Notes: a model not told the origin generated them from the sequence alone. Positions 6,149 through 19,463 are shown, numbered from the stretch's first letter. The stretch: DNA of 24,119 nucleotides from Desulfuromonadaceae bacterium (GCA_036514355.1 DATBXI010000063.1:1-24119), one strand, 5' to 3'. Made by a program: numbers and translations.

Positions 6149-7474
6149 ATGAAAAAACTGCTTTACCGATTCTTCCCAGCACTATTCCTGCTGGCCCTGC
6201 CCGCCGTTGGTCAGGCGGACACCGCGGTCGATTCATCCACCCTGTTACGTTTTTCCCAAGACAGCCGGCCCGGCTTCTCCACAAAGACGTTTGTGCCAGC
6301 TACCCAGTTTTTGGGCCTCGATGTTGACAAGCTGGGGGATGGCAAGCTTTCCGTGCACCTCTACGGATGGGGACGTGTGGATCTGGCTGACAAGAGCTTC
6401 AACGACAAGCAGACGGGTGGCAGCCTGACCTACGCCTATGCCCAGTACCGCTTGGACCAGGCCAACGGTCAGGTCCGGGTCGGCCGTTTCTTTGTCAATG
6501 AAGGGATAGTCAACGAGCAGGTGGACGGTCTGCATGTGCGCACCGACCTGCCGATGGGGTTCGGCATCTCCACGTTCGGTGGCGCCACGGTCCACACCGC
6601 GCACCAGCTGGGCCTGGGGACCGACGGCAAGGGGGACGGCATCGTGGGTGGCCGTCTGAACTACCGCTACAAAGGGATGCTGGAATTGGGGTTGTCGGGT
6701 GTCTATGAAAGCAACGCGCCCACCGTCAATGATCCCCGAGTGTCCAGTATATTCAGCAGCCACAGGCTCATCGGCGGCGATGTCTGGCTCTCCCCGCACC
6801 GCATGGTGGAGATCATGGGGCACACCAGCTACAACACGGAGACCGACGGTGTTGCCGAACACAGCTACATGCTCAATATCAAGCCAATCGCGCACTTGGT
6901 CCTGACCGGCGAATTCAACGAGCACCGCGAAGCGAACCTGTTCTCCAGTTCGCTCCTCTTCGCCACGTTCGTTCAAAATCTGAACGAACGGTCCCGCTCG
7001 GCAGGGGGCAGCGCTTCCTACGAGTTGAACAAGATGACGGAGGTCGCGGCTGATTACAAACATTACAGCCGTGACATAGGGGAGGCCGACCGCTTCGGTG
7101 GAGATGTGCGCTTCGCGCTGATGGACAAGCAGGTGCGCACCGGCGTCGGTTATCACTATCTGAGGGCAGGTACGAATTTCGCGATAGCCGGCACGGCTTC
7201 CGGCTCGTTCCATGAGGTCCACGGCTACGCCCTGCAGGATACCAAGACCTATATGGCCTCCCTGGACGCCATCGCCTATATCTTTAAAGAAAATATCAAC
7301 AATAAATCAAGCGCCTGGGAGTTTACCGGGTCCCTGGGCTGGCATATTTCCCCGGCCCTGATCCTGTCCGGCGATCTCGGCTACGGGAAGAACCCGCAGT
7401 TTGTTGACGATCTGAAAGGATTGTTACGCCTTACCTACAACATGAATTACACCGGAAAAGGAGGCACGAAATGA
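6149..7474 (+). CDS. Outer-membrane beta-barrel porin of a porin-cytochrome conduit (ExtB-like)
   Basis: AGGAGG RBS and ATG 6149 (track start 6104 is too far upstream). Signal peptide ending GQA-D, many amphipathic aromatic-rich beta strands, and an ATGA overlap with the cytochrome gene. Confidence 0.85.
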   Translation: MKKLLYRFFPALFLLALPAVGQADTAVDSSTLLRFSQDSRPGFSTKTFVPATQFLGLDVDKLGDGKLSVHLYGWGRVDLADKSFNDKQTGGSLTYAYAQYRLDQANGQVRVGRFFVNEGIVNEQVDGLHVRTDLPMGFGISTFGGATVHTAHQLGLGTDGKGDGIVGGRLNYRYKGMLELGLSGVYESNAPTVNDPRVSSIFSSHRLIGGDVWLSPHRMVEIMGHTSYNTETDGVAEHSYMLNIKPIAHLVLTGEFNEHREANLFSSSLLFATFVQNLNERSRSAGGSASYELNKMTEVAADYKHYSRDIGEADRFGGDVRFALMDKQVRTGVGYHYLRAGTNFAIAGTASGSFHEVHGYALQDTKTYMASLDAIAYIFKENINNKSSAWEFTGSLGWHISPALILSGDLGYGKNPQFVDDLKGLLRLTYNMNYTGKGGTK

Positions 7475-7944
7475 AACGCTTCACCCTGATCTTTCCCATC
7501 CTGGCGTTGGCCGGGTTGATTGCCATACTCGGGGCGTGTGCCCAGATGAAGAGCCTCCCGAACCTTCCGGCCTGGCATCCCGAGGAGTTGGCCGCCGGAC
7601 CGGTGAGTTGCGCCGAATGCCACGAGGACCAGCAGAAAGGGACCATGAAGCCCTTTGCCGCCTTCAACCACACTCCGTCGTTTGTGAAGAACCATCGCTT
7701 CTACGCCTCGTCGGACGCCCTGCTCTGCGCCACTTGCCACAAGGAATCGTTCTGCAACGATTGCCACACCAACCAGGTGGAGATCAAGCCCTCCATAAAG
7801 TTCGGCAACCGCCCCGACCGGGAGCTGCCGCACCGTGGGGACTACATAACGATGCACAAGATAGAAGGCAAGCTTGACCCGGCGAGTTGCTATCGCTGCC
7901 ACGGCAGAGCCAACAACGAGCGCTGCATAGTCTGCCACCGATAG
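7471..7944 (+). CDS. Pentaheme c-type cytochrome lipoprotein (ExtC-like)
   Basis: Lipobox LGA-C23 and five CXXCH motifs (CAECH, CATCH, CNDCH, CYRCH, CIVCH). Confidence 0.92.
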   Translation: MKRFTLIFPILALAGLIAILGACAQMKSLPNLPAWHPEELAAGPVSCAECHEDQQKGTMKPFAAFNHTPSFVKNHRFYASSDALLCATCHKESFCNDCHTNQVEIKPSIKFGNRPDRELPHRGDYITMHKIEGKLDPASCYRCHGRANNERCIVCHR

Positions 7945-7954
7945 GAGAGAACCC

Positions 7955-8983
7955 ATGCGCATATCAAATTCATTGATCAATATAGTTGCAATCGCCGTAC
8001 TGTCCGCGGCGCTCTTCGCGTGCAGCAATGGCAACAGCGGCGACGTGGCGCCGGTGGACAACAACGGCAACCATCCTGCCGACTGGGTTCACAAGCATCC
8101 TGCGTATGCCGCACAAACCCAGCTTGCCGCCTGCACCGGCTGCCACGGCGACAATCTGGACGGCGGCAAGGCCAACGTGAGCTGTTTTGGTGCGGGTTAT
8201 CAACGCAGCGGGTTCCAATGCCACACCAACAACCCGAAAAATTATGCGGTTGACGACTGCGGTTCGTGCCACAACGGGCCGCCGAACGGTCCCAACGGCG
8301 CACTCTTTCCCAACAACCAGGGCGCCCACGATTCACACACCAACGTTCCCAGCGTGACCTGCAGCGCATGCCATAACGGACTCGGCTCGGGCACCGCCCA
8401 CCATGGCGACGGCACCCAGGTCGTCAGCCTGGCGCCCGGCTTCCAGGCGGAAACGGTCACCACCGATTTCAACTATCACCCCGTCAACCCGAACGACCAG
8501 ACCAAGGGCGGTACCTGCTCCGGGGTCAGCTGCCACGGCGGCCAGGTGTCCCCCGAATGGTTGACCGGCAAGTGGAGCAACGGGAACGACTTCAACCTTG
8601 CGACGGATTGCTTGAAATGTCACGAAGAAGCCACCGCTGCGCCAGGGCCGGGTAAGCCGACGAAGCCGCAGTACAACAGCTACTACTCCGGAGTTGATGC
8701 GACCTACACTGGGGTGCCGGCGAGCAATACGTTGCATCATTTTCACGTGAGCGGATTAGGGAAAGACTGCACAGAATGCCATAACATCAACAGACTGAGT
8801 GACAGCCAGACGCACTTCAGCGGGGTCACCACCAATACCTTCACGGATCCCGGCGCCACCGTCGGCTCTGCACCGACCAAAATCGGCACCTACGACAAGG
8901 CAACGAAAACCTGTTTCAACACAAACCTCAACAATAGCAACCCAGGTTGCCACATAGCGAACTTCGTTGGGCACTGGCAGTAA
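7955..8983 (+). CDS. Multiheme c-type cytochrome lipoprotein (ExtD position), 5 canonical plus 3 atypical motifs
   Basis: Lipobox LFA-C23. CXXCH x5 (CTGCH, CGSCH, CSACH, CLKCH, CTECH), CX4CH (CSGVSCH), CX11CH x2. Rich in N, T, G and S. Confidence 0.9.
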   Translation: MRISNSLINIVAIAVLSAALFACSNGNSGDVAPVDNNGNHPADWVHKHPAYAAQTQLAACTGCHGDNLDGGKANVSCFGAGYQRSGFQCHTNNPKNYAVDDCGSCHNGPPNGPNGALFPNNQGAHDSHTNVPSVTCSACHNGLGSGTAHHGDGTQVVSLAPGFQAETVTTDFNYHPVNPNDQTKGGTCSGVSCHGGQVSPEWLTGKWSNGNDFNLATDCLKCHEEATAAPGPGKPTKPQYNSYYSGVDATYTGVPASNTLHHFHVSGLGKDCTECHNINRLSDSQTHFSGVTTNTFTDPGATVGSAPTKIGTYDKATKTCFNTNLNNSNPGCHIANFVGHWQ

Positions 8984-8996
8984 GTAGAGTACTCGA

Positions 8997-9044
8997 TGAA
9001 ACAGGAAAGCCCCTCCCGGCAACGGGAGGGGCTTTCCTGTTTCA
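8997..9044. terminator. Perfect 22-bp hairpin with GCAA loop; terminator of the cytochrome operon
   Basis: TGAAACAGGAAAGCCCCTCCCG (8997-9018), GCAA, then the exact reverse complement (9023-9044). Confidence 0.9.
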
Positions 9045-9090
9045 GTAAAAGCTTTTGCATCATCCAGCCTGTTTTACTATGAATTGGAAA

Positions 9091-9124
9091 TTAAAAATGG
9101 GACCGCAAAGGGTCCCATTTTTAA
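9091..9124. terminator. 14-bp hairpin; terminator of the minus-strand lipoprotein gene (symmetric)
   Basis: TTAAAAATGGGACC, 6-nt loop, GGTCCCATTTTTAA. Confidence 0.85.
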
Positions 9125-9145
9125 TCCATAAGCCAGGAGTTCTAT

Positions 9146-9544
9146 TTACTTTTCAACCCGTATGCCCGGAATAAAATGTATCGCTGCAAAGGTCTTGTTG
9201 AGCGTTTTACTGGTGAAGTTCACCATCGGCGGTGTGTCCGGATATTCGATCTTATCGCCTACCGCGACCTTCATCTGAGGCATGGCCAGCCACGTTTTCT
9301 CCCCTTTGTCGTCGGCTGCCTCCACATAGGTGTACCCCGCGGCGTTCATGGTCTGGGTGATCTTGCCTTTTTTGCCGGCACCTGCAGGGATCTCCTGGGC
9401 TTTCATGCCTGCATGGGGATCTCCCACGCCGGGTTGTGCAGGGGCCGCGGCGGGTTTCTGAGGTGCCTCAGCCGCAGGTTTGTTCTGGCAACCGGCAAGG
9501 GCGATCGCAGCGATCGAAAGAAGCGTCAATATGGTGTTTCGCAC
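9146..9544 (-). CDS. Lipoprotein, NrfJ-related / OB-fold-like
   Basis: GTG 9544 with AGGAGG RBS (track start 9643 is too long). Lipobox LAG-C, Pro/Ala linker, and the domain GKITQTMNAAGYTYVE...TWLA...MVNFTSKTLNKTF, which I recall from NrfJ-related proteins. Confidence 0.65.
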   Translation of the reverse strand: MRNTILTLLSIAAIALAGCQNKPAAEAPQKPAAAPAQPGVGDPHAGMKAQEIPAGAGKKGKITQTMNAAGYTYVEAADDKGEKTWLAMPQMKVAVGDKIEYPDTPPMVNFTSKTLNKTFAAIHFIPGIRVEK

Positions 9545-9863
9545 GGAGAACCTCCTGATTTTTGATTGTATACAAATACCATAAAAGCACTTGAATATCC
9601 AAGGAAAAAGTACGGCCCTCTCCGGGCCTGAACGCTCTCCCATTGCCGTTTTTCAGCTACAGGTAAATGCTTCGCCATGCAATAAAGTGAGTGAAAAAAA
9701 TGATGGTTTTATCGTATGATGGTTTAATTGGTGAGCATGTGGTGAAACTCCAATGGTTAGCTGTGGGTAACTATACTGTACACCCCGTTTCCGGCGTCCA
9801 TAGCGCTGGCATTTCCCTCGTACCTGCAGTTGTATGAAATGTCTGTTTGATGGTCGAGTCACA

Positions 9864-11042
9864 ATGAACACATATTTTCGCAAAATACGCCTGTTGACCA
9901 TCTGCCTCGTGTGCTCAATTCTGGCGCATATCTTTGTTGTGTACGCGCTGAGGCTGTTCGGGACCTACGATTTCAGCGCACCTGTGAGTCAGCCCCCGGG
10001 AGTGACCGTCGAATTGGCCAAATCAACCGATGCCGCTCCCGCAGAAGAGAATGCCGAGAAACAAGAAAACGACGCAGTCCAGGAAGACGACACCAGCGTG
10101 AAACGTCCGCTCCCGGTCCAGGAAGATGACGGCAGCACGGTGTCCGAGTCCGAACCGGAACCGGCGGAGATGCCGATCGTGAGAAGGGATAAGGTTGTCT
10201 CCCCACAGGCCGAAAAAGCAACCGCCGGCGCTCTGCCAGCCGGAGCATCTCTTTCCAAAGCCGCGAGTCAAACTCCCCCTCCATTGAAGGCAGGGGACTT
10301 TCTGGGGGCGCAATTCGAAAAGCTCACCTACCAGATAACCATGCTTGGCATACCCATAGGAAACGCCGAACTTGAAGCGAAGTACGAGAACGGAGAGACT
10401 TCGATCACGCTGAGAGTCAAATCAAATGCCGCAATCTCTAGTGTTTTTCCGGTTGACGATGTTGTCGAAACCCGTCATCTCGACGGCAGGTTCATCATGA
10501 CGAATGTAAAACAGCGAGAGGGCGACTTCAGGAGTGATGAGATGTTTGCCATCAACCCAGGGAAAAAATCGGTGTCCTGGATGGACAACATCAGGGGGCG
10601 CAGCCTGAAAATGCCGCTTCCCACCGACGATGTGCTCGACACTCTATCGGGTATCTATTACCTCAGGAAACGTCAGCTGCAGGTTGGCCGGACGGAAACT
10701 CTCCACATCTACGACAGTGAGACATATGCGGATGTGCCGGTTGAAATCCTGTCCCGGGAGGAAATGCGCCTTCCTAATCTCACGAAGGTCAATGCGCTGG
10801 TTGTCCGCCCGCTCCAAAAGACGGCGGGCATTTTCAGGCGAACAGGGGATGTCCTGATCTGGATGACTGACGATGATCACAAAGTGCCGGTAAAAATCGT
10901 CACCTCCATCGCTCTCGGCAAGGTGACGGCCGATCTTGTGTCAGCCGAATCGAAACCCTTTGATGCAGAGCCCAAGGACACATCCCGGTTGATGCAACAT
11001 GCTGACACCACACCACCACGGAATGGAACCGCCCGCCGGTGA
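9864..11042 (+). CDS. Membrane-anchored DUF3108-domain protein
   Basis: N-terminal TM, acidic/Pro linker, and a C-terminal EKLTYQITMLGIPIG...DTLSGIYYLR...IWMTDDDHKVPVKI domain. Likely start ATG 9864 with a weak RBS. Confidence 0.75.
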   Translation: MNTYFRKIRLLTICLVCSILAHIFVVYALRLFGTYDFSAPVSQPPGVTVELAKSTDAAPAEENAEKQENDAVQEDDTSVKRPLPVQEDDGSTVSESEPEPAEMPIVRRDKVVSPQAEKATAGALPAGASLSKAASQTPPPLKAGDFLGAQFEKLTYQITMLGIPIGNAELEAKYENGETSITLRVKSNAAISSVFPVDDVVETRHLDGRFIMTNVKQREGDFRSDEMFAINPGKKSVSWMDNIRGRSLKMPLPTDDVLDTLSGIYYLRKRQLQVGRTETLHIYDSETYADVPVEILSREEMRLPNLTKVNALVVRPLQKTAGIFRRTGDVLIWMTDDDHKVPVKIVTSIALGKVTADLVSAESKPFDAEPKDTSRLMQHADTTPPRNGTARR

Positions 11043-11075
11043 ATGGCACAAGCCCCATCTCCTGAAGGATTCCCC

Positions 11076-11615
11076 ATGCTTCACAATAATTCACTACGCA
11101 GAATACTGGTGGTGCTCATCGCCCTCATTGTCTCTGGGTGTGATACAAAACAGGACTTGCAAACAGGGGATTCCGCCCCAGAATTTTCAGTATCGGACAT
11201 GCGTGGCGAACGGATTCGTTTGAGCCAGTTCAAGGGCAAAATCGTTGTCCTGTATTTCTGGCGGAATTCGTGCTGTAGTGATGGCTTGAAACGTATCGAA
11301 CCGCTGTATCGCGCAAACAGACACAATAATTTCGAGATAGTGGCGGTAAATGGCGGCGACACCAAAGAGGCTGTTGCAGCGTATGCGAAGAGCAACGGAT
11401 TGACGTTTGCTATGGTGCCGGATGAACAGTTGATGCTGGTGAATCAGTATCACGTCATCGGGTTTCCGACGATTTTCATACTGGACAAGCATGGTCTTAT
11501 CCGCGAAAAAATCATGGGCGCGGTACAAACCGAGCAACTGGAGAAATTACTCCAACGCCAGTTCGGCATCCAGAAAGCGGCTGAGGCTGCATATGAGAAG
11601 ACCCATGTCCATTAG
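11076..11615 (+). CDS. TlpA/ResA-like thioredoxin-fold lipoprotein with vicinal CC instead of CXXC
   Basis: Lipobox VSG-C. APEFSVSDMRGERIRLSQFKGKIVVLYFW, cis-Pro loop GFPT, FILDKHGLIR. The active-site region reads FWRNSCCSDG. ATG 11076 follows GAAGGA. Confidence 0.85.
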   Translation: MLHNNSLRRILVVLIALIVSGCDTKQDLQTGDSAPEFSVSDMRGERIRLSQFKGKIVVLYFWRNSCCSDGLKRIEPLYRANRHNNFEIVAVNGGDTKEAVAAYAKSNGLTFAMVPDEQLMLVNQYHVIGFPTIFILDKHGLIREKIMGAVQTEQLEKLLQRQFGIQKAAEAAYEKTHVH

Positions 11616-11697
11616 ATCCTTTATGTGGCCGGCACGTGCGGATGTGGGTCTGAAACGCTGCTGCGATGGACGAATACACGTACAAGGGGATGAGTAA

Positions 11698-12075
11698 ATG
11701 CTGCTGCAAGCTGTAATCTGGATGAATCTCGCGCTTGTTTTCTACACGTGGGCCGTGTTCAGCGGGCGAAAACAGGGATTGCACCGGAAGCATCTGATTA
11801 TTTTCGGCATCGGCCTGGCGTGCGATTATCTTGGTACCCACCAGATGAACCTGTTCGCCCATACCTACGGCAAGGCGCCCGAATGGCACAACATCACCGG
11901 CATCGCTTCGTTGGGTGGGATGGCTTTTCACTTTATGCTGGCGCTCGTCGCTTCCCTGGCGAACAAAGCGGAAGCGGTCAACCGCATTTTTCACCGCGTC
12001 AGCCTGAGCATCTATACCTGCTGGCTGATTGCCTTTTTCAGCGGGGCCATCTCCGGCATGATGCGCATGCGGTAA
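11698..12075 (+). CDS. HsmA-like (TIGR03987-type) 4-TM membrane protein
   Basis: LALVFYTWAV, HLIIFGIGLACDYLGT, HNITGIASL, FHF.LA and FHRVSLSIY.CW match the HsmA pattern, including the conserved His residues. Confidence 0.7.
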   Translation: MLLQAVIWMNLALVFYTWAVFSGRKQGLHRKHLIIFGIGLACDYLGTHQMNLFAHTYGKAPEWHNITGIASLGGMAFHFMLALVASLANKAEAVNRIFHRVSLSIYTCWLIAFFSGAISGMMRMR

Positions 12076-12098
12076 GCCGATAACCTGTCCCACAACGC

Positions 12099-12133
12099 AC
12101 ATCGGCCCGGCGATATCTTCGCCGGGCCGATGT
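12099..12133. terminator. 15-bp hairpin between convergent hsmA-like and radical SAM genes
   Basis: ACATCGGCCCGGCGA, TATCT loop, TCGCCGGGCCGATGT, followed by T-rich sequence on the + strand. Confidence 0.8.
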
Positions 12134-12156
12134 TGTTTGCGTTCTTTCCTGAAATA

Positions 12157-13632
12157 TCAGTAGCTCTTGAACACGTCCGTGGTGAAGTGCATCGGCATCT
12201 CGGAGCCGGAGAAATCGAAATGCTCGCCATGATCCTTCATCATCAGTCTGAATGCGCTGAGCATGTAGCGCCGCTTGAATCCATCCTCCAGCGCAACGAT
12301 CTCCTGCACCTTCTCGCTATAGAATTTCATGTAGCAGGTCCCCAACGCCTGGGTGATCTCATCCATGGACATTTCGTGGGGTTCCACAATGGGTGTTACC
12401 AGGTTGTATTTCGAGTAATCCCACACCCTGATGCGGTCCTTCATCTCCTTGAAGAGCGGCGTGAAGGGCATGGGAGTCACCACCGGGAAGACGGCGATGT
12501 CCGGGTTCAGGTATTTCGCCGACTCGATGGTGCTGTCTATGGAGTCCCACGTTTCGTTGGGGAAGCCGATCATGAACGACGCCTCGGTGATGATACCTGC
12601 ATCACGGCACAGGTCCAGGGCCTGTTTGTTCTGTTCGAAACTGGTTCCTTTGTTGAGGCTGTTCAGGGTGTCCTTATCGGCGCTCTCTGCGCCGATATAG
12701 ATGTGGATGATGCCGGCATCCCGGTATTTATGCAGGATATCCGCATCCCTGATGATATCCTCGACCCGCGTCTCGATAAGGAGGCGGACGCCGAAGTTCC
12801 GCTCGATCAGAAGATCCAGGAACAGTTCCCAGCGATCCCGGTGTTTTGTCGGATAGGCATCGATAAGGGTGAAATAGCTGATGTTGTAGGTTTCGATCAG
12901 GTGAGCCATTTCTTCGATGACGTTTTCCGGTTTTCGGCAGCGCCAGTCTTCGCGCCAGAACATCCGCTGGCTGCAAAACGCGCATCCCATGTCGCAGCCG
13001 CGGGAGGTGAGGATGGAGGCCATCCTGCCGTTCGGCTCGACAAGATACCGGTAGTCCTCCCAGTCCAGCAGGTGCCAGGCCGGTTTCAATGAATCCAGCT
13101 CCACGATGTGCGCCTGGTTTTCGTTGCTGATGACCTCCGTCCCCTCACGGTAGGCGATCCCTTTGACGCTTTTCCCCGTCCCCTCCGGGATCGCGGTGAG
13201 CAGTTGCTTCAGGGTATGCTCCGGCTCTCCCTTGATGATGAAATCCACGTTGCTTTTCTCATCTCCCGGGGTTTCCAGAATCTCCTGGTACATGAACGTC
13301 GGGTGCGGTCCGCCCAGCAGCGTCACGATGGCGGGATTCACCTGTTTGGCAACGTCGAGGATCTTGAGGGCATCGGGCACCGTCGCGGTGCTGATGGCCC
13401 CGGTAACGGGGAGATAGTCGAGCGTCATGACGAAGTCGGGCTGGTACCGCTCTATTTCGGCGCGGATATCCTTAAACGAGAGCTTCTTGTTCATGGCATC
13501 GAAGATCCGTGCCTCGTGGCCGGCTTCAAGCGCCGCACCGGCCAGGTACGCCAGATGCAGCGGAGGCCAGGTTCCGACGACCTGCACGCCCCAGCAATGG
13601 TATGGCGCTGTTACGAAAAGAATCTTGCTCAT
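12157..13632 (-). CDS. B12-binding radical SAM protein, BchE-like (paralog 1)
   Basis: N-terminal cobalamin-binding-type domain (WPPLHLAYLAG, LGGPHPTFMY). CxxxCxxC RGCDMGCAFC at 12973-12996. TRVEDIIRDADILHKYRDAG and DYSKYNLVTPI match the BchE family. Confidence 0.9.
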   Translation of the reverse strand: MSKILFVTAPYHCWGVQVVGTWPPLHLAYLAGAALEAGHEARIFDAMNKKLSFKDIRAEIERYQPDFVMTLDYLPVTGAISTATVPDALKILDVAKQVNPAIVTLLGGPHPTFMYQEILETPGDEKSNVDFIIKGEPEHTLKQLLTAIPEGTGKSVKGIAYREGTEVISNENQAHIVELDSLKPAWHLLDWEDYRYLVEPNGRMASILTSRGCDMGCAFCSQRMFWREDWRCRKPENVIEEMAHLIETYNISYFTLIDAYPTKHRDRWELFLDLLIERNFGVRLLIETRVEDIIRDADILHKYRDAGIIHIYIGAESADKDTLNSLNKGTSFEQNKQALDLCRDAGIITEASFMIGFPNETWDSIDSTIESAKYLNPDIAVFPVVTPMPFTPLFKEMKDRIRVWDYSKYNLVTPIVEPHEMSMDEITQALGTCYMKFYSEKVQEIVALEDGFKRRYMLSAFRLMMKDHGEHFDFSGSEMPMHFTTDVFKSY

Positions 13633-13669
13633 TACCTTCTCCCCTGCGTTATGAGATTTTACAGAATAT

Positions 13670-13695
13670 GAGGACCCCGGTGCAGCAGGGTCCTC
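13670..13695 (-). promoter_or_regulatory. Hairpin in the 5' region of radical SAM paralog 1
   Basis: GAGGACCC-N10-GGGTCCTC, 38 nt upstream of ATG 13632. No long U-tract follows on the minus strand. Confidence 0.45.
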
Positions 13696-13796
13696 GAATT
13701 TCTTTGCCGTACTTTAGCAGGGAAACCGGCAAATGGTCATGTAAAGATTTAGTAAAGAACGCAATGGTTGGAAGATGACAGCGGGGTAAGGGCAGC

Positions 13797-14888
13797 TTAT
13801 CCCATCACTCGATCGTCACCCTTACAGGGGAGGTGGAACCAGACCCGTGTCCCGCTCTCGTCACTCTCCGCGCCCACTGTTCCGCCATGCGCCTCGATCA
13901 GTTCCTTGACGATCGCCAGCCCGATGCCCGCTCCACCCGCATCCCGTGAGCGCGACCGGTCGGCCCGGAAGAACCGCTCGAACAGGTACGGGATATCCTT
14001 ATCCGCGATCAGGGCGCCGCTGTTGCTGAAGATGGTTCTTATGCCGTCCGGGGTGCTCTGCACCGCAATCGTAACGCTTCCACCCCGGGGAGTGTATTTC
14101 CAGGCATTGTCGGCCAGGTTGCGAATCGCCTGCAGCAACTTGTCGCGATCCGCCGTCACCAGGTCGCTTCCCGGATCGATCTGCCACTGCACATCGATCC
14201 CCTTTTCCTGGAAATTCGGCTGATACAGGGTCATGATCTGATCGAGCAGTTCGTGGAGGGAGAGTTCCTCGCAATCGAGAAAGGCCTTGGCGGCATCGGC
14301 CCGGGCCAGTTGCTGGAGGTCCTCGACCAGGTGGACCAGGCGCAGGACCTCCTGCTCAAGCATCTGGAAGGTTTCGCGGCTCGGCGGTATGACGGAGTCG
14401 CTCAACCCCTCCAGGTACCCGCGCAGATTGGTCAGCGGGGTGCGCAACTCGTGGGCGATGTCGGCCACCATGTTCTTGCGCAGCCGTTCGACCGCTTCCA
14501 GGTTGTCGGCCATGTGGTTGAAGGCATCGGCAAGCTGGCCTCCTTCATAGCGGGATGCCGCGTTGACCCGCTCGGAGTAATTCCCGTCGGCAACCTTTTT
14601 GGTTATGGCGGTGATCTGCAGCAGGGGGTGCAGGACCCATTTGGTCAGGAGGTACGTGAAGAGCAGGGTAAAGGTCAACGCAGCGAAAACGCCCCAGAAC
14701 AGGTGGTGGTGGATGGCCTCAAGGAACCGGGCATGGGCCTCAATCGGCGAGACGTGGAAACGTCCCGTCAGCTCCTTGTAATACTCTACCGCTTGCCGAT
14801 CCACGGCCTGCCAGACCACCAGTGAAAAGATCGCAAAGATCGGGACTATGTGGCCGATCAATAACTTCCAGAGTAGCCGTTGTCGCAT
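13797..14888 (-). CDS. Sensor histidine kinase, HAMP-HisKA-HATPase (BaeS-like)
   Basis: Two TMs, HAMP, H-box VADIAHELRTPLTNL, N-box NLADNAWKY, G-box GAGIGLAI. ATG 14888 with AGGGGG RBS. Confidence 0.92.
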   Translation of the reverse strand: MRQRLLWKLLIGHIVPIFAIFSLVVWQAVDRQAVEYYKELTGRFHVSPIEAHARFLEAIHHHLFWGVFAALTFTLLFTYLLTKWVLHPLLQITAITKKVADGNYSERVNAASRYEGGQLADAFNHMADNLEAVERLRKNMVADIAHELRTPLTNLRGYLEGLSDSVIPPSRETFQMLEQEVLRLVHLVEDLQQLARADAAKAFLDCEELSLHELLDQIMTLYQPNFQEKGIDVQWQIDPGSDLVTADRDKLLQAIRNLADNAWKYTPRGGSVTIAVQSTPDGIRTIFSNSGALIADKDIPYLFERFFRADRSRSRDAGGAGIGLAIVKELIEAHGGTVGAESDESGTRVWFHLPCKGDDRVMG

Positions 14889-14898
14889 CGTATTCCCC

Positions 14899-15609
14899 CT
14901 AGATGCCGCCGTCGCTGAAGGAATAACCATGGCCGCGCACGGTCAGGATGAAGCAGGGGCGGGAAGGATCGTCCTCGATTTTTTGGCGGAGTTTTCCGAT
15001 ATGAACGTCGATGACCCGGTCAATGACCGCCTCGCTGTTCTGATAGCACTGGCTGAGGAGTTCTTCGCGGGAAAAGGCCCTCCCCGGGGAACTCATCAGG
15101 GTGTGCAACAGCTTGTATTCCCACGACGTCAGGGGAACGAGTCTCCCATCGCGGGTTACCCTGTGCTTCTCGGAGTCCAGCTCCAGTCCGGCAAACGCAA
15201 GGACGGGCGCAGCGGATGAAACCGGCCTGCTGCGGCGCAGGATCGCTTTGACCCGCTCCACCAGCTCGCGGGGGCTGAACGGTTTGACCACGTAATCATC
15301 GGCGCCCATCGCCAGCCCCGCTACCCGGTCAACCTCTTCTTCCCGCGCCGTAAGGATCAGGACCGGAATGTTGGAACGCTCCCGCAGAGCCCGGCAAATC
15401 GCCCAGCCGTCCAGATTGGGCAGCATGATGTCGAGGATGACGAAGACAGGATCACAGGTGCCGGCGGTTTCGATCGCCTGTCCCCCATCGTGGACCATCA
15501 CCGTCGAAAAACCTTCCCGCTCCAGGTACGTTGCAACCAGTGCGGCCGTGTTGCGGTCGTCTTCTACTATCAGCACCGTGCCCTGTTTGGCTGCTATGGA
15601 TTGGGACAT
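14899..15609 (-). CDS. OmpR-family response regulator
   Basis: LIVEDD, ILDIMLP, GADDYVVKPFSPREL and winged-helix RVIDVHIGKLRQKIE. ATG 15609 has a GGAG RBS; the alternative start is 15624. Confidence 0.92.
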   Translation of the reverse strand: MSQSIAAKQGTVLIVEDDRNTAALVATYLEREGFSTVMVHDGGQAIETAGTCDPVFVILDIMLPNLDGWAICRALRERSNIPVLILTAREEEVDRVAGLAMGADDYVVKPFSPRELVERVKAILRRSRPVSSAAPVLAFAGLELDSEKHRVTRDGRLVPLTSWEYKLLHTLMSSPGRAFSREELLSQCYQNSEAVIDRVIDVHIGKLRQKIEDDPSRPCFILTVRGHGYSFSDGGI

Positions 15610-15624
15610 GACATTCTCCGACAT

Positions 15625-15655
15625 GGGGGATGAGGACCATGCATCCTCATCTCCC
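15625..15655. repeat. GATGAG/CTCATC-type hairpin between rhodanese stop and response regulator start
   Basis: GATGAGGA (15629-15636) and TCCTCATC (15644-15651) pair perfectly; the stem extends to 12 bp (15625-15655) with one G-T pair. Confidence 0.6.
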
Positions 15656-15964
15656 GGGCTTCTCCAGGGGAAAGCCTGAACGACGCCAGGCGGCCATATG
15701 GCCGGTAAGGAGTGTAACGTTGCGATACCCGAACAGGCCGAGTAACGCCCTGGCCATCACGGCACGGGGACCAAGTTCGCACAGGGCAACCATCTCGGTA
15801 CGCTTGTCCGCAGGAAGCGCCGCCAGCAGCAGCATGATTTTCCAGATGGGCGCGTGTATCGCCCCGGGTATATGGCCGGCCCTGAATTCAAAACCGGTGC
15901 GGACGTCCACCACGGCGGGGGATTGGCCCCGTGCCATTTTTTCTGCAAGCTCCCTGGGGTGCAT
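15647..15964 (-). CDS. Single-domain rhodanese-like sulfurtransferase
   Basis: VVDVRTGFEFRAGHIPGA, active-site loop CELGPRA, LTGHMAAW. ATG 15964 is best spaced from GAGGA. Confidence 0.85.
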   Translation of the reverse strand: MHPRELAEKMARGQSPAVVDVRTGFEFRAGHIPGAIHAPIWKIMLLLAALPADKRTEMVALCELGPRAVMARALLGLFGYRNVTLLTGHMAAWRRSGFPLEKPGR

Positions 15965-16022
15965 GATCATTCCTCTTGCAAAGCCTCGTTGAGAGGTGAA
16001 TCCTGGAAAGGACTGCCGGCTT

Positions 16023-17570
16023 TCAGCCTTTGTCCCTCCTCATTTCTTGCATCTTTGCCGGTATCTTGCCGAGCATGCCGATTCCCAGTTTTTTCATGAC
16101 AAAGGGGCTTCCCATGAACAGCTTGGTGATGCGCATCAGATAGTCACGCCTGAAGGTCGCTTTCATGGTCATGAATTCTATGATCTTGCCCATGTAAAAG
16201 CGGCGGTAGCAGTCCGCCTGTGCCACTTCGACCTGAAGCATGCTCATGCCGTGGGGTTCGAGGACGGGATCGACCATGTTGTATTTCCCGTAATCGTTGA
16301 TCCGGATATGGGGCTTTAGCTCTGCGTACTCGTCAGAATAGGGCCACGGGGTGTAGATCAGGAAGTTGGCGATATCCGGGCCGTACTGCTGGACCAGCTG
16401 CATGGTCCTCTTGATGCTCGCAGGGGTCTCGTCGGGAAACCCCAGCATGAACGATGCCTCGGATACGATCTCCTGCTCGTGGAGGAGCTCGAAGACCTGT
16501 TTGACGTCTTCTATGACGATCCCTTTTCTCATCGCGTCGAGGAACGCCTGGTCTGCGGCCTCGACCCCGATGGAAATATAGATGATCCCTGCCTTGCGAT
16601 ACTTCCCGAGGATGTCCTTGTCCCGGAGTATGTCCGACCCCCTGGTTTCCATCAAAAGATGAACAGGTATCTCCCTGGCGATGATTGCGTCGAGTAGGGC
16701 CTCCCAATGCTCCCGGTTTCTGGTGGGGTATTCATCGGTAATCAGGAAGGCATTGACGCCGTACCGGGAATACAGGTGCTCCAGTTCGTCGGCCACCTTC
16801 CGGGGGTCACGGGCGCGCCAGGACTTCTCCCAGAACCGTTGCTGGGAGCAGAATACGCAGTCATGGTCGCAGCCGCGGGAGGTGCTGATGGCTCCCAGGC
16901 GGGAACCGGGGATCGCCAGGCAGGTGTAGGTGCTCCACTCGAGGAGATCCCATGCCGCCGGCAGATCGTCGATGCATTCCAGCAGGGGACGCCGGGCGGT
17001 CGTCATTACCGCTCCATCGCGGTTGCGGAAGGCAAGCCCCGGAACCGCGGCAGGATCGCCGCCGGCTTCCAGGACCTCCAACAGGTGCCGGAGGGTGGCC
17101 TCCCCCTCACCGACAACGATGTAGTCGATGGCGGATGACTGCCCCAAGACCTCTTCATACATGAAGGTGGGGTGCACCCCCCCCAGAATGGTGACGGTGT
17201 CCGGCCTGACGCTCTTGGCAAGCTCCAGGGTTTTGGCGGCGTCGTTGATGGTGGCGGTCATGGCGGTGGTGGCGACATAATCTACCCGGGATTCACGCAG
17301 GCGGCGCTCAATGTCCGGATATCCATGCCCCATGGCCATGGCGTCGTAGATCTCGGCGCCCACGTTCGCCTGGCGGGCGGCGCCGGCAAGATAGACCATG
17401 CCGAGCGGTATCCAGCGGCCGGCAACTTCATCGATGCCGCTATGATAGGGGGGAGTCACAAAGAGGATTCTGCTGGGGGGGGCTGTCGTTCCTGTCCGGG
17501 TTTTTCCTGAAGGGGTACTAGTTGTCATCGGTATCCAAATATTACCGTATAATTTTACACACTTTACCAT
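16023..17570 (-). CDS. B12-binding radical SAM protein, BchE-like (paralog 2)
   Basis: PPYHSGIDEVAGRWIPLG, LGGVHPTFMYEEVL, DYIVVGEGE, CxxxCxxC RGCDHDCVFC at 16848-16871, YTPWPYS. Start is 17570 (AGGGG RBS) or 17528. Confidence 0.9.
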   Translation of the reverse strand: MVKCVKLYGNIWIPMTTSTPSGKTRTGTTAPPSRILFVTPPYHSGIDEVAGRWIPLGMVYLAGAARQANVGAEIYDAMAMGHGYPDIERRLRESRVDYVATTAMTATINDAAKTLELAKSVRPDTVTILGGVHPTFMYEEVLGQSSAIDYIVVGEGEATLRHLLEVLEAGGDPAAVPGLAFRNRDGAVMTTARRPLLECIDDLPAAWDLLEWSTYTCLAIPGSRLGAISTSRGCDHDCVFCSQQRFWEKSWRARDPRKVADELEHLYSRYGVNAFLITDEYPTRNREHWEALLDAIIAREIPVHLLMETRGSDILRDKDILGKYRKAGIIYISIGVEAADQAFLDAMRKGIVIEDVKQVFELLHEQEIVSEASFMLGFPDETPASIKRTMQLVQQYGPDIANFLIYTPWPYSDEYAELKPHIRINDYGKYNMVDPVLEPHGMSMLQVEVAQADCYRRFYMGKIIEFMTMKATFRRDYLMRITKLFMGSPFVMKKLGIGMLGKIPAKMQEMRRDKG

Positions 17571-17730
17571 GTCGCCCCTAAATGTTCCATAAAAATGTCG
17601 GCCGGTTGCTTGTGGGTGGCGTGCTATGAAATTACTGGGAACTCCCGTGGTTTGATGATAAACTACCCCCGTTTTTTTGCTTCACAGCAGGTGCAGGAGG
17701 GGAAATCGCGCAGCGGCAAGGCGGAACGAC

Positions 17731-18474
17731 GTGATAAACGGACAGAAGATTGTTGTGGTTTTCCCGGCCTACAATGCCGAGAAGACGCTGGTCAACACCT
17801 GGCAGGAGATCCCGCCCGAAGTGGATGAGATGGTGTTGGTCGATGATTGCAGTAGCGATAAGACGGCGGAGTTGGCCCGACAGCTGGGCATTACCACGGT
17901 GGTGCATGAAGCCAATACCGGCTATGGGGGCAATCAGAAGACCTGCTACCGGACCGCACTGGAATTGGGTGCCGACATCGTGGTGATGGTTCATCCGGAT
18001 TATCAGTACACTCCCCGCCTGGTTACGGCCATGGCTGCCATGATTGCGTACGGTGAGTTCGACGCCGTGCTCGCTTCCCGCATTCTCGGGACCGGTGCCC
18101 TTAAAGGCGGCATGCCCCTCTACAAGTACATTGCCAACCGTTTTCTGACCTTTGCGGAAAACATCCTGCTCGGCCAGAAGTTCTCCGAATATCATACCGG
18201 CTACCGCGCCTTTTCCCGCCATGTGCTGGAGCGGCTGCCGCTGGACGCCAATTCTGATGACTTCGTTTTTGACAACCAGATGATCGCCCAGTTGGTCTGG
18301 TTCGATTTCAGGGTCGGCGAGCTGTCCTGCCCCACCAAGTATTTCAGGGAAGCGTCCTCCATCAATTTCCGCCGCAGCGTCATCTACGGTTTCGGTGTGC
18401 TCGGCACGGCAATCACATTCCGGCTCAACAAATGGGGATTGGCGTCAACGCCCCACTACCGGCGGAACGGATGA
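17731..18474 (+). CDS. Glycosyltransferase family 2 (DPM1-like)
   Basis: [38 protein letters not shown] start at 17731. Confidence 0.88.
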
Positions 18475-19463
18475 AGCTCATCATCCAGATACCATGCTTC
18501 AACGAGGCGGAGACACTGCCGGTCACCCTTGCGGAGCTCCCCCGCGCAGTGCCCGGCTTCGATGCCGTGGAATGGCTGATCATCAACGACGGCAGCACCG
18601 ACGACACCCTCGGGGTTGCGCGGAAACACGGCGTCGATCATGTTATCAGCTTTACAAAGAACCAGGGGCTGGCGGGGGCCTTTCTCGCCGGGCTGGATGG
18701 ATGCGTCAAGCTGGGCGCCGATGTCATTGTCAATACGGATGCCGATAACCAGTACCTGGCGGCCGATATTCCCGCGCTGATCGCCCCCATCCTGGCGGGC
18801 AAAGCGGATGTGGTCATCGGTGCCCGCCCCATCAACGAAATCCGGTCCTTTTCGCTGGTGAAGAAGCTGTTGCAAAAGGCCGGCAGCTCGGTGGTGCGCT
18901 TCGTCAGCAAGACAGGCATCCCCGATGCCCCCAGCGGCTTTCGGGCCATGACCCGGGAAGCGGCCATGCGTTTGAATGTGTTTAACGACTACACCTACAC
19001 CCTGGAAACAGTCATCCAGGCCGGGCAGAAAAACATCGCCATCACCTCCGTGCCGGTGCGGGTCAACAACGCTCTGCGCCCCTCACGGCTGGTAAAAAGC
19101 ATATCCTCGTATATCAGGAAATCGCTGGTCACGATCGTCAGAATTTTCGTCGTGTACAAGGCCTTCAGATTCTTCATGTCGGTGGGGGTGACGGTATTGT
19201 CCCTCGGGTTGCTGGGAGGGATCAGGTACCTGTACTACTACGCCACGGGCGCTGGCGCTGGACATGTGCAATCGCTGATTCTGGCTTCCATACTCGTCGG
19301 CGTTGGTTTCCAGACCATGCTGACCGCGTTTCTCGCCGATCTTCTGGCGGTCAACCGCCGGCTCATGGAGGATATCCAGTATAGAGTCAAGAAGCTGGAG
19401 TTTCCCGGAGCCGCGGACAGACATCCGGATAACGTCATCCTGGAAATGAGAGAGCGCCCGTGA
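18471..19463 (+). CDS. Glycosyltransferase family 2 with C-terminal TM helices
   Basis: [33 protein letters not shown] and two C-terminal TMs. ATGA overlap with the previous gene. Confidence 0.88.

Follow-up and report, generated by a model that had tools for sequence, protein, structure and literature searches.

The 24,119-nucleotide contig DATBXI010000063.1 of a Desulfuromonadaceae bacterium (GCA_036514355.1), referred to here in its whole length as the window, carries two genes for cobalamin-binding radical S-adenosylmethionine (rSAM) enzymes, rSAM1 and rSAM2. Together with a rhodanese, a two-component system and a converging gene of the HsmA family, they make up a module that is co-inherited with a dedicated CcsA/ResB-like pair of cytochrome c synthase genes and with large multiheme cytochromes, and that often lies together with them. 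The rSAM module is likely to be functionally tied to cytochrome c maturation. On the strength of sequence comparison we also lean towards the reading that the module is an accessory of a dedicated System II cytochrome c synthase, encoded by a ResB-like/CcsA pair on another contig of the same genome (C270), and that heme would be modified before its attachment. The narrower proposal that the substrate of the rSAM enzymes is the tetrapyrrole itself is plausible, and we hold it tentatively. The first-pass annotation of positions 6149-17570 had proposed an undescribed system making modified or unusually attached hemes; the coupling of rSAM and HsmA genes to System II synthase genes and multiheme cytochromes agrees with it, and the modified heme is something that we infer.

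Both rSAM proteins, which share 45% identity, have the class B architecture, with a B12-binding domain (PF02310), a radical SAM domain (PF04055) and a CX3CX2C motif that reads CDMGCAFC and CDHDCVFC in the two translations. The best NCBIfam model for both is BchE (TIGR02026), the anaerobic Mg-protoporphyrin IX monomethyl ester oxidative cyclase, with 402.2 bits for rSAM1 and 403.1 bits for rSAM2 and about 458 of the 497 model positions aligned. These scores lie under the equivalog cut-off of 481.35 bits, and two true BchE representatives (P0286 and P0288), which are 36-38% identical to rSAM1 and rSAM2, reach 769.5 and 760.9 bits. The next-best families score 146 bits or less, HemN only 22.7 bits; the second-best matches are hopanoid and lipid radical SAM enzymes, and the weaker ones include C-methyltransferases of ribosomally synthesized and post-translationally modified peptides (RiPPs).

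A maximum-likelihood tree places both rSAM genes inside a 41-row clade apart from true BchE (split support 92/93). The rSAM1 clade has full support (100/100), and its sister half is formed by ResB/CcsA-linked genes from other phyla; rSAM2 falls in a distinct clade, again with 100/100 support, which also holds the protein P0275 described below. Since the two clades are separate and fully supported, we consider rSAM1 and rSAM2 old paralogs of a cytochrome-synthase-linked family, and neither the outcome of a recent duplication nor BchE. None of the 151 genomes of the order has a BchE match above the TIGR02026 cut-off, and the best BchM/ChlM methyltransferase match (TIGR02021) in the source genome, a metagenome-assembled genome (MAG) that is 87.7% complete, scores 50.2 bits where the cut-off is 158.9. 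The first-pass description of two BchE-like B12 radical SAMs is thus upheld by domains and best model, true BchE being excluded by score and tree. Neither protein bears a signal peptide by its sequence, so the substrate must be accessible from the cytoplasm. The start of rSAM2 in public collections probably sits about 37 codons further in, giving 478 aa. Selenocysteine was considered for the BchE-like genes flagged with one TGA and was rejected, as the model alignment overruns the stop codon.

To delimit the module, species-representative genomes were searched with rSAM1, which gave 58 loci onto which all window proteins were mapped; the conservation counts rest on those 27 Geobacteraceae loci that have 6 kb or more of sequence to each side. 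Within this family rSAM1 is 76-88% identical. rSAM2 is present at 25 of these loci, the histidine kinase and the response regulator at 22 each, the HsmA-family gene at 18 and the rhodanese at 17. A family 2 glycosyltransferase (GT2) encoded at 18432-19463 is also found at 18, the DUF3108 gene at nine and the small lipoprotein gene at eight, and the porin-like barrel, each of the two cytochromes and the TlpA-like gene recur at a single locus apiece. The functional unit is therefore predicted to be narrower than 11 kb, comprising rSAM2-rhodanese-regulator-kinase-rSAM1 on the minus strand (17570-12157) and the converging HsmA gene (11698-12075). A cytochrome with at least three hemes lies within about 10 kb of the module at roughly one fifth of the Geobacteraceae loci, which by a rough estimate is about what genomic cytochrome density would lead one to expect. 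Since the conduit accompanies the module at one locus in 27 and cytochromes stand near it about as often as by chance, the conduit appears to be a bystander. Conserved linkage in other genomes, by which the first-pass annotation proposed to judge its idea, therefore exists for the rSAM pair, HsmA, kinase, regulator and rhodanese (17-25 of 27) and is lacking for the conduit and the TlpA-like gene (1 of 27 each). The wider idea, under which almost all genes of the 11 kb would form a single system around the conduit, finds no support here: the porin-cytochrome operon and the TlpA-like gene do not travel with the rest.

No ResB or CcsA gene was found inside the window, as the first-pass annotation had itself cautioned when it noted the lack of a CcsA/NrfI synthase there; the dedicated ResB-like/CcsA pair is present in the same genome on contig C270. 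The ResB/CcsA genes of this genome lie on C249 (ResB and CcsA), C270 (a short ResB-like gene and CcsA) and C307 (CcsA), and on C270 the short ResB-like gene of 384 aa is followed by a CcsA gene of 278 aa. Orthologs of the C270-type CcsA, 66-80% identical, directly flank the module in loci L026-28, L033, L053, L055 and L076. In L028, rSAM2, regulator, kinase, rSAM1 and CcsA follow one another in the same orientation, and a gap of 6 nt separates CcsA from rSAM1. Four close relatives have the ortholog on the replicon of the module as well, at a distance of 22-35 kb. Across the order, the C270-type CcsA is present in 40 of 151 genomes: in 39 of the 46 with at least two BchE-like hits, in none of the 34 with one, and in one of the 71 with none, counts that overstate the significance of the co-occurrence because genomes of one order are not independent. 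The joint pattern of module and CcsA spans four families of the order and several gene arrangements.

The surroundings of the module in Geobacter sp. AOG1 (L083; G037:C1:1846000-1865999) were also recorded. The 40 kb upstream of the module hold what looks like a loose island of cytochrome-maturation paralogs: a short ResB-like gene, a full-length ResB, the C270-type CcsA and, between that CcsA and the module, two cytochromes (8 and 9 hemes), a second CcsA paralog and a membrane protein with two histidines (2-His membrane protein).

The linkage to cytochrome synthases extends beyond the order. Orthologs of rSAM1 in Coriobacteriia, Bacillota, Pseudomonadota and Myxococcota are 62-71% identical, and those outside Geobacteraceae adjoin ResB/CcsA, multiheme cytochromes, a LuxE-like ligase and small His-bearing membrane proteins. 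In a Coriobacteriia locus (L046), the rSAM ortholog is followed by a 126-aa three-helix 2-His membrane protein, CcsA, ResB, a lipoprotein and a 912-aa multiheme cytochrome, and CcsA and ResB also adjoin the ortholog in L044, L045, L047 and L049. The Motiliproteus locus L051 combines a 2-His membrane protein, a LuxE-like adenylating enzyme, the rSAM gene, NnrU, an NHL propeller, an 11-heme cytochrome and a ResB-like gene, and a metagenome contig (L061) carries NHL, 2-His membrane protein, LuxE, rSAM, a HemJ-like UPF0093 protein, a cytochrome, ResB and CcsA. At L059 the ortholog stands beside a 9-heme cytochrome, Fur and ferritin. With queries from L051 and L061 (tblastn, E 1e-3), the LuxE-like ligase, NnrU, NHL propeller and HemJ-like protein had no match in the source genome, where rSAM1 is accompanied by a second rSAM paralog, the rhodanese and the regulator. 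A homolog of the 2-His membrane protein (L062, 44% identical) occurs there in an unrelated context, at 2363-2713 of the 3.8-kb contig C10, where it adjoins an FtsX-type permease and a WG-repeat protein.

rSAM2 has only about ten close clusters in an exhaustive search of representatives at 50% identity, and every one of these whose context was read displays the cytochrome-maturation pattern. The nearest relative outside the lineage, P0275 (63% identical to rSAM2), lies in the order CcsA-HsmA-rSAM-two giant cytochromes, and the HsmA beside it is 88% identical to that of the window. The contexts of P0278 and P0277 read ResB-CcsA-rSAM and NHL-2-His membrane protein-rSAM, respectively. Two clusters are fusions: P0283 joins the rSAM enzyme to a LuxE-like adenylating domain (975 aa), and P0276 joins it to an SRPBCC/polyketide-cyclase-like ligand-binding domain (657 aa). 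In L028 an SRPBCC protein is encoded by a gene of its own behind the CcsA paralog (12342-12809), and P0279 is a BchE-like protein of 1075 aa whose C-terminal half has no assigned domain. Altogether, ResB/CcsA genes stand with the rSAM gene in four phyla, in operons of at least four different layouts.

A compact version of the association was found in genome G040, which is probably Geobacter sulfurreducens PCA. Here a single-copy operon on one strand (L085; G040:C1:3164000-3183999) comprises genes for a LuxE-like protein, a ResB-like protein, CcsA, a 2-His membrane protein and a BchE-like rSAM enzyme 44% identical to rSAM2. It lies directly upstream of a cytochrome gene with 27 CXXCH motifs, after which come further multiheme cytochromes. 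The 27-CXXCH gene probably corresponds to GSU2887, described as a 27-heme cytochrome (bioRxiv 10.1101/2022.05.22.492868).

The converging gene of the module encodes a protein that matches TIGR03987 over the whole model (1-120/120) and above its cut-off, and four of its histidines (His32, His63, His79 and His99) are kept in at least 95% of 34 orthologs, which substantiates its earlier description as an HsmA-like His-containing membrane protein. The HsmA of Clostridioides difficile is known to bind heme and sequesters it (PMC12541388). In the loci studied here the HsmA gene adjoins either rSAM gene, and some genomes carry one copy beside each. HsmA and BchE-like genes occur together in 67 of the 151 genomes of the order, HsmA alone in 8, BchE-like genes alone in 13 and neither in 63; in about 35 genomes the two lie no more than 4 kb apart. 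Shared descent of the genomes inflates these counts too. The HsmA-family protein may here take the place held by the 2-His membrane protein in other lineages.

The remaining genes of the module fit the domain assignments made before: the rhodanese and the two-component system, with HAMP/HisKA kinase and OmpR-type regulator domains, were both recovered. Regulator and kinase genes are lodged between the two rSAM genes, and the kinase has two transmembrane segments and a short outer loop. The rhodanese carries the active-site Cys loop CELGPR, and since LCELGPR is preserved in at least 95% of 25 orthologs, it is predicted to be catalytically intact.

Taken together, these observations can be arranged into a working scheme. 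The inner membrane would be the place where the four-helix His-rich HsmA protein keeps its ligand, heme b or else a tetrapyrrole late in the pathway, on the inner face, and where the two cytoplasmic cobalamin rSAM paralogs, on the model of BchE, would each modify side chains of the macrocycle by radical chemistry. The dedicated CcsA/ResB pair would then export the product and attach it to particular large multiheme cytochromes, while the embedded two-component system would set expression and the rhodanese would supply or relay sulfur, for example for Fe-S clusters. A tetrapyrrole substrate is proposed because BchE, the nearest characterised enzyme, attacks a tetrapyrrole propionate side chain, because the recurrent partners are membrane proteins of heme or tetrapyrrole type (HsmA, the CopD/HemJ-like 2-His protein, the HemJ-like protein and NnrU), and because other lineages have a LuxE-like enzyme, which activates carboxylates, beside the rSAM enzyme or fused to it. 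The complete scheme, in which the two rSAM enzymes chemically alter a heme held by HsmA and pass it to the dedicated CcsA/ResB for certain giant cytochromes in Geobacter relatives and many metal-respiring bacteria of several phyla, is rather unlikely to be correct in every part.

Several points weigh against an accessory role in heme modification, in addition to the shared ancestry of the genomes counted above. The window has no synthase gene beside the module, and the MAG is fragmented, with the C270 pair on a separate contig. The GT2 glycosyltransferase neighbours the module as often as HsmA does. Of the genomes with HsmA as well as a BchE-like gene, about half have the two apart, and in G040 an HsmA homolog (67% identical) sits amid housekeeping genes, a context that offers no further clue. 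An interface prediction for rSAM2 with HsmA gave a score of 0.00, which is listed here and bears neither way on binding. The roles assigned to the rhodanese and the regulator are guesses. Our literature search found no paper linking BchE-like enzymes with cytochrome maturation, and to our knowledge no modified heme has been reported in structures of Geobacter cytochromes.

The system can be compared with several that are already known. BchE has the same class B layout, an N-terminal cobalamin domain followed by a radical SAM core, but its genetic context differs: cytochrome c synthase genes stand here, not bacteriochlorophyll genes. Dedicated System II synthases are known from Wolinella succinogenes, where NrfI serves CXXCK and CcsA1 serves CX15CH, and Geobacter has multiple ResB/CcsA pairs. 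Here, likewise, an additional CcsA paralog is paired with a short ResB-like protein, co-inherited with accessory genes and placed beside particular large cytochromes; no radical SAM or HsmA-type protein is described for any System II variant in the literature searched. With HsmRA of C. difficile the module shares the family TIGR03987, and the protein here is likewise small, with four helices and conserved His. Unlike HsmRA, the window has no MarR-type HsmR beside the HsmA gene among the ORFs (open reading frames) scanned, its flanks being the TlpA-like gene and rSAM1; the partners in this free-living anaerobe are BchE-like rSAM genes and CcsA. HemN, AhbD and ChuW/HutW offer a functional analogy, as cytoplasmic anoxic radical SAM chemistry on tetrapyrrole side chains or ring, but they are neither cobalamin-dependent class B enzymes nor close relatives of the rSAM proteins of the window.

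The content of the window was read from the ORF listing and from Pfam and NCBIfam scans (Table 1). Its source is a MAG of 2.79 Mb in 517 contigs. The genes listed by the first-pass annotation were found in their places, the NrfJ assignment aside, and the ORF layout of 6149-17570 gives four predicted transcription units, in line with its caution that there were at least four: the conduit (+), the small lipoprotein (-), DUF3108-TlpA-HsmA (+) and rSAM2 to rSAM1 (-).

Table 1. Features of the window around the rSAM module, with the evidence on which each assignment is based
Feature	Position	Strand	Evidence or remark
Porin-like barrel	6149-7474	+	Atlas structure, template modelling (TM) score 0.93 to 'Porin family protein' cluster; no Pfam match
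5-heme lipoprotein cytochrome	7471-7944	+	Lipobox and heme motifs in translation
Lipoprotein cytochrome, up to 8 hemes	7955-8983	+	Lipobox; 5 CXXCH, 1 CX4CH, 2 CX11CH
Small lipoprotein (labelled 'NrfJ-like' in the first-pass annotation)	9146-9643	-	Unnamed family
Membrane-anchored DUF3108 protein	9834-11042	+	PF11306, 83 bits
TlpA/ResA-like thioredoxin-fold lipoprotein, CC for CxxC	11043-11615	+	AhpC-TSA and Redoxin domains
HsmA-family (TIGR03987) four-helix membrane protein	11698-12075	+	91.7 bits, cut-off 78.2
GC-rich hairpin, 15-bp stem	12099-12133	.	In the gap where the HsmA gene and rSAM1 converge
rSAM1, cobalamin-binding radical SAM, BchE-like paralog	12157-13632	-	PF02310 and PF04055
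Hairpin, 10-bp stem	13670-13695		Within the 164-nt gap between kinase and rSAM1
HAMP/HisKA histidine kinase	13797-14930	-	PF00672, PF00512, PF02518
OmpR-type response regulator	14899-15624	-	PF00072 and PF00486
Single-domain rhodanese	15647-15970	-	PF00581, 57.9 bits
rSAM2, cobalamin-binding radical SAM, BchE-like paralog	16023-17570	-	PF02310 and PF04055
GT2 glycosyltransferase (GT2b), C-terminal membrane helices	18432-19463		Glycosyltransferase

The hairpin between the ends of the HsmA gene and rSAM1 is a probable two-way terminator. The second hairpin, between kinase and rSAM1, may act inside the operon as an attenuator or a processing site and could uncouple rSAM1 expression from the upstream genes. 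From 17677 on, the window carries envelope polysaccharide genes, namely glycosyltransferases (including one at 17677-18474), a GDP-mannose dehydratase and an ABC-2/Wzt exporter. The GT2b protein is 77-85% identical across Geobacteraceae, and its gene directly adjoins the CcsA paralog in L053 and L055.

The first genes of the region form a porin-cytochrome conduit, with an outer-membrane barrel and multiheme lipoprotein cytochromes in one predicted operon. In the Pcc and Ext conduits of Geobacter, too, the barrel gene shares an operon with the genes for multiheme lipoprotein cytochromes that come after it; the operon of the window differs in having no periplasmic cytochrome gene, both cytochromes carrying lipoboxes and no third cytochrome gene being present in 6149-8983. 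Cytochromes with non-canonical Cys spacing had been announced in the plural, and only the larger one has such motifs (CX4CH and CX11CH). A homolog of it (31% identical) at L024 15634-17115 carries two CX9CH, one CX11CH and one CX4CH, and extended heme-motif spacings thus look like a trait of this cytochrome family. L024 is the only one of the 27 loci that keeps the conduit near the module. The small lipoprotein has no Pfam, NCBIfam or Protein Data Bank match, and its Atlas neighbours are unnamed lipoprotein clusters.

The TlpA-like protein matches ResA structures (E 1.8e-20), in keeping with a thioredoxin fold, and its segment FWRNSC--CSDG aligns to FWGTWCKPCEKE of ResA, where a two-residue gap turns CxxC into CC; the altered dithiol remarked on earlier is borne out by this alignment. 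Six orthologs of this CC-TlpA (44-56% identical; L016 and L066-L070) keep SCC[GSL]D, more distant TlpA-like paralogs carry CGC, and four of the six orthologs adjoin an ABC ATPase, not rSAM genes. In L016, the CC-TlpA gene stands between DUF3108 and the HsmA gene on the opposite strand. The alignments point to a genuine conserved subfamily that would lie outside the module, and the conduit, the small lipoprotein and CC-TlpA are best regarded as bystanders acquired in this lineage. In about eight loci (including L006, L012, L017, L020, L022 and L023) the HsmA gene has the DUF3108 gene immediately before it in the same orientation, which suggests a recurrent DUF3108-HsmA operon; the DUF3108 gene appears to be an occasional companion of the HsmA gene and the first gene of the predicted DUF3108-TlpA-HsmA unit. 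A single-sequence AlphaFold model of its domain had a mean predicted local distance difference test score (pLDDT) of 37.8, too low for use, and its Atlas neighbours are DUF3108 clusters only.

Other explanations of the module have to be weighed. The rSAM enzymes could modify the cytochrome polypeptide, through a RiPP-like methylation or crosslink of the cytoplasmic apocytochrome before Sec, with HsmA unrelated or acting as a heme buffer. Many class B radical SAM enzymes methylate peptides, RiPP C-methyltransferases are among the weaker NCBIfam matches, and the rSAM genes often directly adjoin very large cytochromes. However, a tetrapyrrole enzyme, BchE, is the best model by far (402 bits vs at most 146 for other families), the companions are HsmA, HemJ-like proteins, NnrU and a heme exporter/lyase instead of peptidases or leader-binding domains, and the rSAM operon of the window has no cytochrome gene, so that we regard peptide modification as improbable. 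A comparably low probability is given to the idea that the module provides bulk anaerobic heme, as an oxygen-independent synthesis step, or breaks heme down for iron in cytochrome-heavy cells. HemN, AhbD and ChuW do act on porphyrin propionates or open heme anaerobically, an rSAM ortholog adjoins Fur and ferritin (L059), another is accompanied by a HemJ-like protein (L061), and HsmA sequesters heme in C. difficile (PMC12541388). The specific coupling found here is nevertheless to a paralogous CcsA/ResB pair and particular giant cytochromes, and not to hem genes. About half of the order, though generally cytochrome-rich, lacks the rSAM genes altogether.

The frequent company of the GT2b gene (18 of 27 loci, at high identity) and the second-best matches to hopanoid and lipid radical SAM enzymes raise the question of whether the rSAM proteins act on a lipid or envelope glycan with the neighbouring glycosyltransferase and O-antigen genes, the cytochrome links being coincidental. 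Outside Geobacteraceae, no glycosyltransferase linkage appeared with the glycosyltransferase genes of the window as queries, whereas the ResB/CcsA linkage recurs in the several operon types and phyla described above and the CcsA paralog follows the BchE-like genes (39/46 vs 0/34 and 1/71); a role in lipid or glycan chemistry is thus very improbable. We give just as little credence to the whole 11 kb, with conduit, NrfJ-like lipoprotein and CC-TlpA, being one heme-tailoring system for the CX4CH/CX11CH cytochrome. That cytochrome does lie next door with its unusual motifs, L024 retains the conduit near the module, and CX4CH is common in cytochromes beside the BchE-like/CcsA modules L076, L046, L044 and L057, a frequency against which no background was set. 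Against this, the conduit and the TlpA-like gene recur at one locus in 27 each, CC-TlpA orthologs elsewhere adjoin an ABC ATPase, and the module-adjacent cytochromes in L051, L061 and L059 are without CX4CH.

Metal-respiring bacteria export electrons through multiheme cytochromes, which also build conductive filaments, and the maturation of these proteins is thought to require just heme export, thiol reduction and a lyase. The rSAM pair, the membrane protein of heme-binding type and the co-inherited CcsA paralog would imply a further, undescribed maturation step; candidates are heme tailoring, the loading of specific clients and quality control of heme. The accessory role that we favour is directly testable, as cultured isolates carry the module (Geobacter sp. 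OR-1, AOG1 and SVR, Geomobilimonas luticola JCM 17780 and Geomonas species) and the simpler single-copy version is present in the probable G. sulfurreducens PCA (G040), for which genetics are established. If heme is indeed altered before its attachment to giant cytochromes, some of the 'heme c' in extracellular electron-transfer proteins would be a tailored cofactor of a new kind, its redox or stacking properties being tuned.

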